Positions 51,201 to 54,762 of a stretch of DNA of 64,000 nucleotides are shown here, one piece after another. Each line of letters begins with the position of its first letter. Positions within the stretch are counted from its first letter, which is position 1. Made by a program: the position numbers. The DNA lies in the NCBI RefSeq assembly GCF_057098645.1, contig NZ_CM169472.1. One strand, written 5' to 3'.

Positions 51201-54200
51201 CGCTATATACCGGCCCCAGTTTACGATGAAAGCCGTTCGCCAGTTCCTGCGCCTGATGAATCGCGTTATCAATCGCTGCCTTACGCGCTTTGTCTTTATA
51301 GGCATCTGGCTGCGCCACGCCCAGCGACACAGAACGAATTTCGTTAAGACCCGCCTTCAGCGCGCCATCCAGCAAGGAATTCAGTTTGTCTAACTGACGG
51401 AGCGTGACTTCCACCGTTCTCACAGCGCGGTAGCCTTTAAGGATACTTTTACCATCCTGATAATCATAATCTGGCTGGGTGCGTAAGTTCGCTGAGCTGA
51501 TATCTTTTTTCGCGATCTGATTGAGTTCAAGGAAGGAAATGTATTGTGCGACGCGCTCATCTGCCTGTTTCTTGGCAGTAGCGGCATCCTTCGCGGCCAC
51601 GTTAACTTCAATCGCAAGAGTGGCAATGTCTGGCACCGCATCCACACTTGCCGTACCGGAGGTGACAATATGCGGTCCATCCGGCAATTCGTTAGCCTGC
51701 GCCGCCATCCCGCTAATACCCATTAATGCCGCCAGGGCGATAACTTTGAACTTCACGTTAGTCTCTCCGTGTTAATTGACTTGCCCAAAATTCAGGACCT
51801 CTGGAGGCAAGCTTAGCGCCTCTGTTTTATTTTTCCATCAGATAGCGCCTAACTGAACAAGGCTTGTGCATGAGCAATACCGTCTCTCGCCAGCTGCAAG
51901 GCTATAAACCACATGACACATCCCACTACCAGATTGATAATGCGCTGTGATTTTGCCGTGCGCAGGCGCGGTGCCAGCCAGGCTGCGAGAATAGCCAGAC
52001 CAAAGAACCACAGGAAAGAGGCGCTAATTGTCCCGAGCGCAAACCAACGTTTTGGTTCGACGTCAAGCTGCCCGCCAAGGCTGCCCAGTACAACAAAAGT
52101 ATCCAGGTAAACATGCGGATTCAGCCAGGTCACTGCCAACATGGTGGCGATAATTTTCCATCTTCCTTGCTTCAGGACTTCGGCACTGGCTAACTCAATA
52201 TTACTGCTCATTGCTGTTTTAAAAGCGCCAAAACCATACCAGAGCAAGAAGGCTACGCCGCCCCAGGTGACCAGCACCAGCAACCACGGCGACTGCATCA
52301 ATAACGCGCTGCCACCAAAAATCCCGGCGCAAATCAGGACCAAATCGCTGATAGCACAAAGTAAGGCAATCATAATGTGGTACTGACGACGAATGCCCTG
52401 ATTCATCACAAAAGCATTTTGTGGACCGAGCGGTAGGATCATAGCTGCGCCAAGCGCAAGACCTTGAAAGTAATAAGATATCACGTAATTTATTCCGAGC
52501 TAATTATCTGATTTGCAGACTATAGCGTGTGAGCATCATTAGAGGAAATGGATATTTTTAATAGCATATTAATAATATTAATAATAAGAAAACGAACAGT
52601 CAGGATGCGTGGCTATTTTTTGGATAACAATATCGCTCACAGGAATCGTGCTACGGCCATTACGGCCTCGCTTTATAAAGGACTCACACAATGCATGCTT
52701 ATGATCTTACCCTCTTGCCCCATCCTATCCGCGAAAATATGCCGCGCCAACAAGGTTGGTGCTTTGGCCTACCGCCAGGCATAACGCCCGAACAGTGGCC
52801 GCTGGATCCAAATAATGGTTTCCCATTGAATCATGGATTTACCCTGCTGTTGCCGGAAGATTATCGGATTTATGGGCCAGAGATTGTCGCGTTATCTTTC
52901 TTTGCTGTTGCGCCCGAGCACAACGATGGCGGAACACCATGTATAGAAGAATTATTGGATGTGTTTGAGAATTTTGAGTCCGGAATACCCCCCGAAGATC
53001 CAGACCTTTATGTTTTCTGGCTGGCAGAAAAGCAACGACATCCACGGCTATTTCGGATGGAAGATATATTAGGTTGTTCTTATGCGGTGATTTTACTCAC
53101 CCAGCAAGAGTTCAACGGCCCATTTTGTGAACCGCCTGAACTTATACCTAATCACTATCGCAACCAGCAAGATACACCAGAATGGATGACCACCGGCAGT
53201 GCGTTTAGTTATTTTCAGGCAAGCGTCAGACCAAAAGATACGCCTGAAAGCAATTTTGTATATCGTAAAATGGGCACCATTCCTGAGCAGTCGCTGGCTT
53301 TCAATCTGGCGATTTCATGTAAGCCGCGCGCTTTTGATCCTAATGCGGGAATTAGCCCCACAGAAAGAAATAATACGGAATATCAGTCCATTCGTTATTT
53401 TTCTAAAGATGCAGAGGGAAAGAGTAAATGTGAAACTCACCAGTGGCATAGTGCACATCAACCCGATCATCTCGGTGGTTCAATGGTTCCATTGCAATCT
53501 ATACCAGATGGAATGTCACCTTTTTATATTGAATTTGAAGAATACTTCGGCGGGTATAATTTTGGTACTGGCAATGCGTGGCTGGACTTTAAAAATATGA
53601 AGTTCGATTTTAGTTGTTAAAGTTCACGGCTTTTAATATTAATGACGACCAATAAAATTACAGATGGAACTGAGATGACATTCAAACACTTTTTACTTTC
53701 TCTGGTATCAGGATTACTTCTGATATCTTCCCACAACGTTGCCGCTGAAAAAATTCTTCGTTATACAGACCATGAACCCTACGGGGGAATGCGTACACAA
53801 ATAATTAAAGAGATATTTTTTGCAGAAATTGAAAAAGAGTCGCAGGGGCGTTTGAAAATCGAACCACACTGGAACGGTGAAACCGCCATCAGCTATGACG
53901 CTCTGACGACAATAAGTGATGGTAGCAAAGCTGATATGGGTATAGTGGTACCGGAATACACAGCGAAACAATTACCGCTTCATCAAATCTTCAAGAGCTT
54001 TGCTATTGGCCCGGATCATGGAGCCAGTCAGGTAGAATTCTTTCGTCGCGTATATGCGGAAATTCCCGAATTTAACGCTGAACTTGAGCGTAACAATATC
54101 GTGAATTTACAGTTTTTCCTTGGCTACCCGGTAGGCTTTTTCTCTACCAGGCCCATTGATAAATTGACTGCACTTCAGGGAACCACCTGGCGAACAGCCA

Positions 54201-54762
54201 GTTTCTGGCATCGGGCTTATTTAACTCATACGGGGGCAAAAACCGTAACCTTACCGTGGAATGAGCAAATTACGACAGCACTCCGCGACGGACAACTCGA
54301 TGGCCTAATGGTCAATCTTGATAGCGGATATGACATCCATGCTGAACGTGCTGCGCCGAATGTGTTGCTCTCCCCTTCGCTCTGGCTTGGTCATGTTTAT
54401 CTGTTGGTAATGAATAAACAAACGTGGGAAAACCTTGATAACAGAGATCGTGAGGCTATTCAACGAGCGGCCATTACAACCGAGAAAGCGCTGGGCAAGG
54501 CATTAGATAACAACCTGATCAGCATGGTAAAAACGCTTGAGCAGGAAGGTGCACAGGTTCGCTATTTGAAAAAATCAGAGCTGGACGCCTGGCAGAAAGC
54601 GATTGGTTATCAGCAAGAGCAAACTCAGTGGGTAGAAAAGCAAAATAATGAAGGCGTGGAGAAAGCCGGGGGAGTCATGCAAAAAGTTGCCAATATACTT
54701 GATGAAACAATGCGTTAAATTGGTAGTGCGCCCATGAACTTCATGGGCGCTTTACATGATTA

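Follow-up and report, generated by a model that had tools for sequence, protein, structure and literature searches.

Two genes between argO and mscS in Escherichia coli: a YwqG-fold protein and an orphan TRAP-type substrate-binding protein at a probably old variable site

In Escherichia coli K-12 MG1655 the genes argO and mscS are separated by 138 bp, whereas 2,275 bp lie between them in the strain analyzed here, and this raises the question of whether the extra DNA is a recent insertion carrying a two-gene system or an older feature of the locus. The window, a stretch of 64,000 nucleotides from contig NZ_CM169472.1 (assembly GCF_057098645.1), holds two co-oriented genes in this gap, both called as open reading frames on the plus strand and named here geneA and SBP (Table 1). 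Over the 2,275-bp segment it is 100% identical to strain C325. The left flanking core gene, argO, is divergent from geneA, and its product shares 97.6% amino acid identity with K-12 ArgO. The GC content of the segment is 43.8%, versus 51.6% for the whole window, and the homologous SBP segment of Yokenella and Klebsiella spallanzanii has a GC content of about 50%. To this extent the locus is as a first-pass annotation had described it, with about 2.3 kb in place of a short spacer, two genes in the same orientation, and a GC content below that of the flanking core.

Table 1. Features of the argO-mscS interval (positions in the window)
Feature	Position	Strand	Basis
argO (arginine exporter, LysE family)	51849..52484	-	ORF call and RefSeq annotation of identical strain C325
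argO upstream spacer, conserved	52485..52590	.	Alignment to K-12; diverged form in K-12, SBP-only E. coli, and E. albertii
geneA-specific leader	52591..52690	+	Sequence comparison
geneA, 309-aa predicted cytoplasmic protein	52691..53620	+	ORF; YwqG/DUF1963 (TYPP) fold by structure comparison
geneA-SBP spacer, 54 nt	53621..53674	+	No hairpin or terminator found
SBP, orphan DctP-type TRAP substrate-binding protein, 347 aa	53675..54718	+	Pfam, NCBIfam, model, Foldseek
Perfect 11+11 palindrome between convergent SBP and mscS	54728..54750	.	Repeat search and folding
mscS, 291 aa	54760..55635	-	ORF; comparison with K-12

The DNA that varies with respect to K-12 extends from about 52591 to about 54780. 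On the left, the ~105 bp beside argO align with the argO upstream spacer of K-12 (K-12 GAAATTGATAATATTAATTGGCAATCAGAAAAACTAATAA aligned to GAAATGGATATTTTTAATAGCATATTAATAATATTAATAA in the window), which we take to be the ArgP/Lrp control region of argO. The AT-rich string that had been read as the leader of imported DNA is present at 52558-52590 but falls inside this conserved, K-12-alignable spacer; it is thus core argO control DNA and no imported leader. On the right, the mscS product has 291 residues here and 286 in K-12 (ending in KEDKAA), the alignment between the two spans residues 1-284 only, and the last codons (54760-54780) differ, which places the right edge of the variable DNA inside the 3' end of mscS.

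The final ~25 nt of the geneA leader (GCTCGCTTTATAAAGGACT) precede geneA in conserved form in E. coli, E. albertii, and metagenome contig L096, and AAAGGA at 52677-52682 is likely the ribosome-binding site of geneA, judging from its sequence. Sigma-70-like matches at 52549-52585 are weak, and a promoter scan found them no commoner than in shuffled sequence. An Rfam search of 52300-54900 retrieved no riboswitch or leader RNA at an E value of ≤1, and a terminator scan revealed none, either in the spacer between the two genes or in the palindrome at the right junction; cotranscription of geneA and SBP in this strain is possible. The palindrome (GCGCCCATGAA/c/TTCATGGGCGC) folds with −22.5 kcal/mol on the plus strand and −20.1 kcal/mol on the minus strand (z of −5.7 and −4.8, respectively), and the right junction that contains it is also present in E. 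coli 118UI, which carries SBP alone. It had been described as a perfect bidirectional terminator. The palindrome is indeed perfect, but a proper T-run is missing on both strands and the scan did not recognize it; it is a probable transcript-end hairpin common to SBP and mscS that has no canonical U-tract.

SBP is a true TRAP-type substrate-binding protein, as the first-pass annotation had proposed. It matches the Pfam DctP family (PF03480) with an E value of 8.6e-20 and the NCBIfam TRAP_S1 model (NF037995) with 61.6 bits, above the cutoff of 50. Its AlphaFold2 model (pLDDT of 91.9) presents a two-lobed fold that superimposes on the nearest solved TRAP substrate-binding proteins with TM scores of 0.74-0.79, and the best 50 Foldseek matches in the PDB are all TRAP substrate-binding proteins (E values down to 2e-21, TM scores of 0.65-0.79). 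In this family, a conserved arginine binds the carboxylate of the ligand. Arg173 of SBP (codon 54191-54193, in GTTWRTAS) aligns with the arginine of LQGMEIRGAG in 4NAP and with that of MKGLKWRAYS in 2PFZ, is placed in the LQG..R motif by the PDB sequence alignments, and is invariant in 40 homologues. The N terminus, MTFKHFLLSLVSGLLLISSHNVAA/EK, displays a basic residue, a hydrophobic core, and a VAA cleavage motif when read from the sequence alone; a signal peptide of 24 residues is predicted at 53675-53746, with the mature protein beginning EKILRYTDHEPYGG, and the model assigns the signal-peptide region a low pLDDT. Translation most likely starts at ATG 53675, giving the 347 residues annotated in RefSeq, rather than at the in-frame ATG 53642, because the upstream codon reads ACG in E. 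marmotae. The dN/dS of SBP is 0.11-0.20.

The ligand of SBP is not readable from its sequence, since its identity to solved substrate-binding proteins is only 17-25%. The nearest of these are Dde_0634 (4NAP/4PGN), the pyroglutamate binders DctP6 and DctP7 of Bordetella pertussis (2PFZ/2PFY), and TarP, a binder of aromatic acids (7NR2/7NRA). The label “C4-dicarboxylate” in the RefSeq product name is generic and unsupported, given that SBP scores 20.3 bits against the dctP model TIGR00787, far under its cutoff of 175. While SBP resembles DctP-type proteins in its Pfam and NCBIfam matches, predicted signal peptide, two-lobed fold, and conserved arginine, it differs from them by an invariant mature N terminus of its own (YTDHEP) and by several invariant histidines and tryptophans.

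The annotation of strain C325 lists no TRAP membrane subunits in the 20 kb to either side of SBP, and no DctQ or DctM is found within 6 kb of it in E. marmotae, Yokenella, Hafnia, metagenome contig L092, or K. spallanzanii. The description of SBP as an orphan receptor therefore holds in six contexts. Membrane-subunit genes are likewise missing next to those of the Bordetella proteins DctP6 and DctP7. The BEN2908 paper deals with another locus, a complete dctPQM, and no paper was found that mentions the RefSeq protein accessions.

The geneA product has no match in Pfam, NCBIfam, PADLOC, PHROGs, or the sequences of the PDB (sequence and profile search, 0 matches), and neither it nor any of 45 relatives matches the Pfam YwqG family (PF09234) even at an E value of ≤10. 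Its modeled structure nevertheless has the YwqG/DUF1963 (TYPP) fold, an assignment made from structure comparison alone, so that the earlier description of the protein as an unknown is right for sequence families and wrong for fold. The TYPP superfamily (TSR4, YwqG, PDCD2L, and PDCD2) was defined by Burroughs and Aravind in 2014 (PMC4275035), who described for the YwqG family a GGxP-type motif, a highly conserved glutamine in the second repeat, and N-terminal fusions. The geneA product carries GGTP at residues 80 to 83 and GGSMVPLQ at residues 262 to 269; H260, G262, and G263 are invariant, and P267 and Q269 are nearly so. This second motif is a spaced variant (GGxxxPxQ), compared with YwqG at the level of the motif. 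An N-terminal DUF7256 extension, present in about a fifth of the geneA relatives listed, parallels the fusions of the YwqG family (PMC4275035). The fold is shared with the prototype structure, Bacillus subtilis YwqG (PDB 1PV5), at 14% sequence identity; the geneA product exceeds YwqG in length by about 50 residues and contains an additional helical insert. Its relatives form a separate proteobacterial subfamily with a C-terminal YIEFEEYFGGYNFG motif of their own, which runs to hundreds of members and escapes detection by Pfam. The protein would be soluble, cytoplasmic, and β-rich; it most likely binds another protein, as a chaperone or adaptor or as an orphan, toxin-neutralizing protein of the immunity type, and is probably neither an enzyme nor part of a transporter.

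The check for conserved neighbors that the first-pass annotation had proposed turned up no common one. When open reading frames were clustered across 87 loci of geneA relatives from about 25 genera, only geneA and its antisense shadow frame were common across genera; greedy ORF calling is noisy in high-GC loci, and the neighbors considered here are the Pfam-confirmed ones only. At about 78 to 80 species-level loci outside Escherichia, none has SBP within 10 kb of the geneA relative. Among enterics, geneA is found at the argO-mscS locus only.

Both genes are absent from K-12 and most E. coli strains, as had been supposed: the empty K-12 junction is present in 5,207 of the 5,426 complete E. coli genomes (96%). 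SBP occurs in 216 of these genomes, in 159 of them alone, and geneA occurs in 57, so that both genes are found together in about 1%. In 37 genomes geneA is intact, and in 20 O145 genomes it is split by an insertion, the O145:H28 site being the target of further insertion (IS3, integrase). The contents of the site vary likewise beyond E. coli, and at least four further enterobacterial lineages have SBP at this position. E. marmotae and E. coli SCPM-O-B-8794 carry both genes; only SBP is found in E. coli 118UI, Yokenella, K. spallanzanii, and metagenome contig L092, and only geneA in E. albertii. Contig L096 shows the reversed order, SBP and then geneA; the spacers in the two gene orders measure 44 to 54 nt.

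The divergence of the two genes is within the range of their flanks. Between the window and E. marmotae, dS is 0.38 for geneA, 0.37 for SBP, 0.48 for mscS, and 0.79 for argO, and between the window and E. albertii it is 1.17 for geneA and 0.90 for argO; the dN/dS of both genes is 0.06-0.20. No mobility genes (integrase, transposase) and no tRNA target are annotated in strain C325, a repeat search revealed no terminal direct or inverted repeats and no insertion scars, and PHROG and PADLOC searches of the segment gave no matches. The locus resembles the strain-variable hotspots and genomic islets of E. coli in being a single site between core genes with strain-dependent contents. Unlike them, its basic two-gene state has no tRNA, integrase, transposase, or direct repeats, and its contents recur in other genera and diverge about as fast as the flanks, which indicates that differential loss rather than gain accounts for most of the variation. 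Of the features expected of an islet, deviant base composition is present, while mobility genes, repeats, and a tRNA are lacking, as are absence from sister species and discordant divergence. The low GC content is compatible with an ancient foreign origin of one or both genes. Across genera, SBP retains only 55-58% identity while the flanking proteins retain 82-88%, and for this reason SBP may have undergone xenologous replacement through the conserved flanks.

Taken together, occupancy of the same site, dS in the range of the flanks, and the lack of mobility genes and repeats argue for an old, differentially lost locus, and the argO-mscS spacer is probably an old variable site of the Enterobacteriaceae that in this strain still holds two functionally unrelated genes. 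Since 96% of E. coli genomes have one empty junction, this junction would go back to a single ancestral deletion or allele replacement, which would also have rewritten the last codons of mscS. Which state is ancestral, empty or occupied, we infer from a comparison of E. coli, E. marmotae, E. albertii, Yokenella, K. spallanzanii, and contigs L092 and L096. The genes may be cotranscribed here, but neither would depend on the other.

The first-pass annotation had instead proposed horizontally acquired cargo, a two-gene module that could serve in sensing or signaling or include a divorced TRAP receptor; it is taken here as a recent acquisition forming a new system from a cytoplasmic unknown and a divorced periplasmic receptor. 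The rarity of the segment in E. coli, its low GC content, the co-orientation of the genes across a terminator-free 54-nt spacer, and the lack of a sequence family for geneA agree with this proposal, but its recent arrival is largely refuted by the distribution: the site is occupied in E. marmotae, E. albertii, Yokenella, K. spallanzanii, and contig L092, the genes assort independently, and neither their dS nor the surrounding DNA bears the marks of a recent transfer. A signaling chain would further call for a transmembrane, kinase, or DNA-binding component, and there is none, which leaves the proposal as a whole highly improbable. Nor do the genes behave as a module, given that 159 E. coli genomes and three other genera have SBP without geneA and E. 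albertii has geneA without SBP. Alternatively, the two could be a genuine functional pair of long standing, with the single-gene states as decay intermediates; what sits oddly with two unrelated genes is that geneA is found beside SBP in both orders, in two enterobacterial lineages and co-oriented at short spacing, and among enterics nowhere else. The YwqG-like protein could, for example, be a cytoplasmic chaperone or adaptor of the SBP precursor or a processor of the SBP ligand; eukaryotic TYPP proteins are client-specific chaperones, PDCD2 and Tsr4 being specific for uS5 (PMC7736825). Such a pair is nonetheless unlikely, in view of the intact geneA that is under purifying selection in E. albertii without SBP (dN/dS of 0.06-0.09), the intact SBP without geneA in the genomes and genera just named (dN/dS of 0.11), and the absence of SBP near geneA relatives outside Escherichia. 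Its most specific form, argued by analogy with Tsr4/PDCD2 and uS5, in which the geneA product would be a client-specific chaperone, adaptor, or ligand handler for an SBP acting as a periplasmic sensor without a TRAP membrane partner, is very improbable; if true, it would account for the presence of the same rare gene next to SBP, in either order, at a single locus of two enterobacterial lineages.

If the two genes are unrelated, as is probable, each has a role of its own to be accounted for. SBP would be exported via Sec by its predicted signal peptide and would close in the periplasm around a small organic acid whose carboxylate is held by Arg173; it would then deliver this acid to a TRAP membrane unit whose genes lie elsewhere in the genome, for example of the YiaMN type, or else serve as a stand-alone binding or sensing protein. 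That SBP is a working transporter subunit feeding a distant membrane pair, for which YiaMN is the candidate in E. coli, is possible if doubtful. The fold, the predicted signal peptide, and the carboxylate-binding arginine are intact, the gene is under purifying selection, and yiaMN is present in 4,430 of the 5,426 E. coli genomes (counted over all genomes). On the other hand, a comparison of SBP with YiaO, the binding protein that belongs to YiaMN, revealed no sequence similarity, the pairing of binding protein and membrane subunits is usually specific in TRAP systems, and DctQM is absent near SBP in all six contexts. For geneA, the comparable proposal is an orphan immunity-type protein against a competitor toxin (a polymorphic toxin or a type VI secretion effector) kept as a stand-alone defense gene. 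In several unrelated genera, relatives of geneA directly adjoin predicted immunity genes, namely SMI1_KNR4 (SUKH-1) genes in MAG L005 and in Pseudomonas schmalbachii (L030), Rap1a genes in two Bordetella species, and a DMP19 gene in Terrirubrum; Sel1-repeat genes lie beside them in L005, L008, and L025; and ywqG, the fold prototype, adjoins the ywqH-L LXG toxin operon of B. subtilis. Immunity genes are neighbors, however, in only about 5 of about 25 genus-level contexts, the others showing ordinary housekeeping genes, and no toxin gene adjoins geneA in the window or in any of the annotated contexts examined. In Bradyrhizobium the geneA family is syntenic and vertically inherited, unlike fast-turnover immunity islands, and a defense role is on balance rather unlikely.

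The reading of the argO-mscS spacer as an old variable site thus corrects the interpretation of this DNA: the conspicuous “insertion” relative to K-12 probably marks a locus of long standing, now missing through loss from K-12 and from 96% of E. coli, and on the present reading its two genes would not form a system. What the locus offers instead are two separate subjects. One is the role of a TRAP-type substrate-binding protein kept at one syntenic site in Enterobacteriaceae with no membrane subunits nearby. The other is the bacterial YwqG/TYPP proteins, none of which is known to have an assigned function and for which the E. coli strains that carry geneA would provide a tractable genetic handle.

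The interval between argO and mscS spans 2,275 bp and carries two plus-strand open reading frames, geneA and the SBP gene, which encodes a DctP-type TRAP substrate-binding protein, whereas the same gap measures 138 bp in K-12 MG1655. Its GC content, at 43.8%, is lower than the 51.6% of the whole window. These measurements confirm the physical observation of the first-pass annotation. Both genes are absent from K-12 and most E. coli: among 5,426 complete genomes, 5,207 have the full-length K-12-type empty junction. The SBP gene is present in 216 genomes, 57 of which also carry geneA (never found apart from it) and 159 of which carry the SBP gene alone. 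All E. coli copies are chromosomal and lie at this site. geneA is intact in 37 of its 57 carriers. The other 20, all complete genomes of O145 strains and mainly of O145:H28, have it split by an insertion encoding an IS3 transposase, a tyrosine integrase, a DEAD/DEAH helicase and a hypothetical gene. The O145:H28 strains RM12761 and RM13516 have an intact geneA.

Features of the argO-mscS region and of compared loci (positions without a prefix are those of the window)
Feature	Position	Strand	Remark
srsR (ygfI)	49953-50864		LysR-type regulator; two ORFs, split by internal stop
argO	51849-52484	-	left flanking core gene
AT-rich leader	52558-52590
K-12-divergent DNA	~52591 to ~54780		last mscS codons included
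geneA	52691-53620	+	ORF, 309 aa
O145 split point	52924/52925		geneA nt 234/235
SBP gene	ATG 53675 to 54718	+	DctP-like ORF, 347 aa, start as in RefSeq
Signal peptide, two-gene allele	53675-53746		MTFKHFLLSLVSGLLLISSHNVAA
Signal peptide, SBP-only E. coli	L002:4978-5049		MHYRQLLPFLLSGFLLLSPSIFAA
YTDHEP motif	53747-53764		mature SBP start
Palindrome	54728-54750
mscS	54760-55635	-	right flanking core gene, 291 aa
mscS 3' end	54760-54780		291 aa here; ...KRVKEDKAA, 286 aa, in K-12
geneA-splitting insertion, O145 RM9872	L003:1-5000
Reversed-order MAG contig JAVXEA010000496.1 (L096)	1-2580		argO, SBP, geneA, mscS
Predicted toxin-immunity neighbours of geneA relatives	L005:5939-11053; L030:3858-4712; L016:10939-11340; L101:3716-4822

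The AT-rich leader, taken earlier as a sign of import, falls inside the ~105 bp beside argO that can be aligned with the K-12 spacer, and is thus core DNA upstream of argO. The palindrome beside mscS, read earlier as a bidirectional terminator, forms a strong hairpin (dG −22.5 kcal/mol on the plus strand and −20.1 on the minus strand, z near −5) that has no U-tract and was not called by the terminator scan. The SBP start is most probably the RefSeq ATG; E. marmotae has ACG in place of the in-frame ATG that lies upstream of it. The variable DNA has its boundary within the last codons of mscS, and the MscS tail gives proteins of 285 to 291 aa in other genera, with or without the SBP gene. Besides the interrupted srsR, RefSeq lists two pseudogenes in C325, a strain 100% identical over the segment examined, namely scpA with a frameshift and meaB with an internal stop, so the sleeping-beauty mutase operon and its adjoining regulator appear to be decaying.

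Both geneA and the SBP gene are real genes under purifying selection (Nei-Gojobori dN/dS of 0.06 to 0.12 and 0.11 to 0.20, respectively), and their divergence rate is similar to that of their core neighbors. Between the window and E. marmotae, which carries the pair at this site in the same order, dS is 0.38 for geneA, 0.37 for SBP, 0.48 for mscS and 0.79 for argO. E. albertii holds geneA alone in this interval (dS of 1.17, with 0.90 for argO), and Yokenella regensburgei, Klebsiella spallanzanii and a metagenome enterobacterium hold the SBP gene alone. The basic two-gene state lacks integrase and transposase genes, has no tRNA and shows no flanking repeats, and neither protein matched the phage and defense libraries. 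Occupancy in other species, core-like dS and the lack of mobility genes or repeats argue against the horizontally acquired cargo first proposed. The most economical reading, with polarity inferred without Salmonella, Citrobacter and E. fergusonii, is that the site would be an old occupied locus subject to differential loss, the uniform empty junction representing one deletion or allele that is now dominant in E. coli. The low GC content and the rapid divergence of SBP from genus to genus (55 to 58% amino acid identity, with 82 to 88% for the flanks) leave room for an ancient transfer or for allele exchange via the conserved flanks.

The single-gene states, geneA alone in E. albertii and SBP alone in 159 E. 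coli genomes and other genera, also speak against an obligate pair. Clustering of neighbors at 87 geneA loci from about 25 genera found none in common, and in a tblastn search with SBP, Escherichia was the only genus in which it lay no more than 10 kb from geneA. geneA and SBP are not a two-gene system. A single contrary observation is the reversed gene order on a short MAG contig (L096), whose flanks share about 77 to 87% DNA identity with Escherichia. Compared with the window copies, its geneA shows 81% identity and its SBP only 55%, the closest SBP being that of K. spallanzanii; the hairpin at the geneA-mscS junction is common to this contig and E. albertii. The contig is labeled Acinetobacter sp., yet its argO and mscS ends are enterobacterial, and the bin label looks wrong. 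Hafnia has an orphan SBP copy elsewhere in the genome.

Profile searches assign SBP to Pfam DctP (E = 8.6e-20) and to NCBIfam TRAP_S1 (61.6 bits, cutoff 50), but it scores only 20 bits against the dctP model TIGR00787 (cutoff 175), so that the RefSeq name "C4-dicarboxylate" is generic. By sequence, the solved structures closest to it are those of Dde_0634 (4NAP/4PGN) and Bordetella DctP6 (2PFZ), with E of ~1e-11 to 1e-9. The confidently predicted structure (pLDDT 91.9) matches only TRAP SBPs in the PDB, including TarP, Dde_0634, pyroglutamate binders and SiaP (TM 0.65 to 0.79, identity 14 to 21%). In alignments, Arg173 of the motif GTTWRTAS falls on the carboxylate-binding arginine of the family, and it is invariant in 40 homologues. 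No DctQ/DctM genes were found near SBP in six contexts examined. Together, these features identify a bona fide orphan TRAP-type SBP, in keeping with the orphan TRAP-like receptor of the first-pass annotation, with a predicted carboxylate ligand. The K-12 TRAP membrane pair yiaMN is present in 4,430 of the 5,426 genomes, and SBP has no similarity to YiaO, its cognate SBP.

The N terminus of SBP reads as a Sec signal peptide, and the mature start, EKILRYTDHEPYGG, is identical in two-gene and SBP-only alleles. The signal peptides of these alleles differ at nearly all positions, identity between the mature proteins is about 93%, and the breakpoint that separates the two forms falls within the 5' end of the gene. 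The YTDHEP motif at the mature start is invariant, as are H179, H240, W172, W178, W195 and W237 in the family alignment; these residues, unusual in DctP-type SBPs, might point to a metal-assisted or aromatic ligand site.

The product of geneA, first described as a cytoplasmic unknown, is indeed recognized by no sequence library, but belongs to a known fold superfamily. YwqG/DUF1963 is part of the TYPP superfamily (TSR4, YwqG, PDCD2L and PDCD2), whose defining features are a duplicated beta unit, motifs of the GGxP type and a conserved Gln, and for which a role in protein-protein interactions was proposed (PMC4275035). geneA has GGTP at residues 80 to 83 and an invariant or near-invariant H-x-GG-x-M-x-P-x-Q at 260 to 269. 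It represents a divergent subfamily of this fold superfamily. Its 399 homologues, about 45 to 55% identical, occur in Pseudomonas, Bordetella, Delftia, Bradyrhizobium, Paracoccus, Sphingomonas, Xanthomonas and Pseudoalteromonas; among the matches listed, about a fifth carry an N-terminal DUF7256 extension. Predicted immunity genes adjoin relatives in several genera, namely SMI1_KNR4/SUKH-1 in a MAG (L005) and Pseudomonas schmalbachii (L030), Rap1a in two Bordetella species and DMP19 in Terrirubrum; Sel1 repeats are also neighbors. Since other contexts are unremarkable, an orphan immunity-like protein is a plausible minority hypothesis within the broader reading of a protein-binding TYPP module.

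Part of the interpretation offered at first is thus supported. In E. coli the region is accessory, and of its two products, both of known kinds, one is an orphan receptor and the other a protein that is poorly understood. It is not recent cargo.
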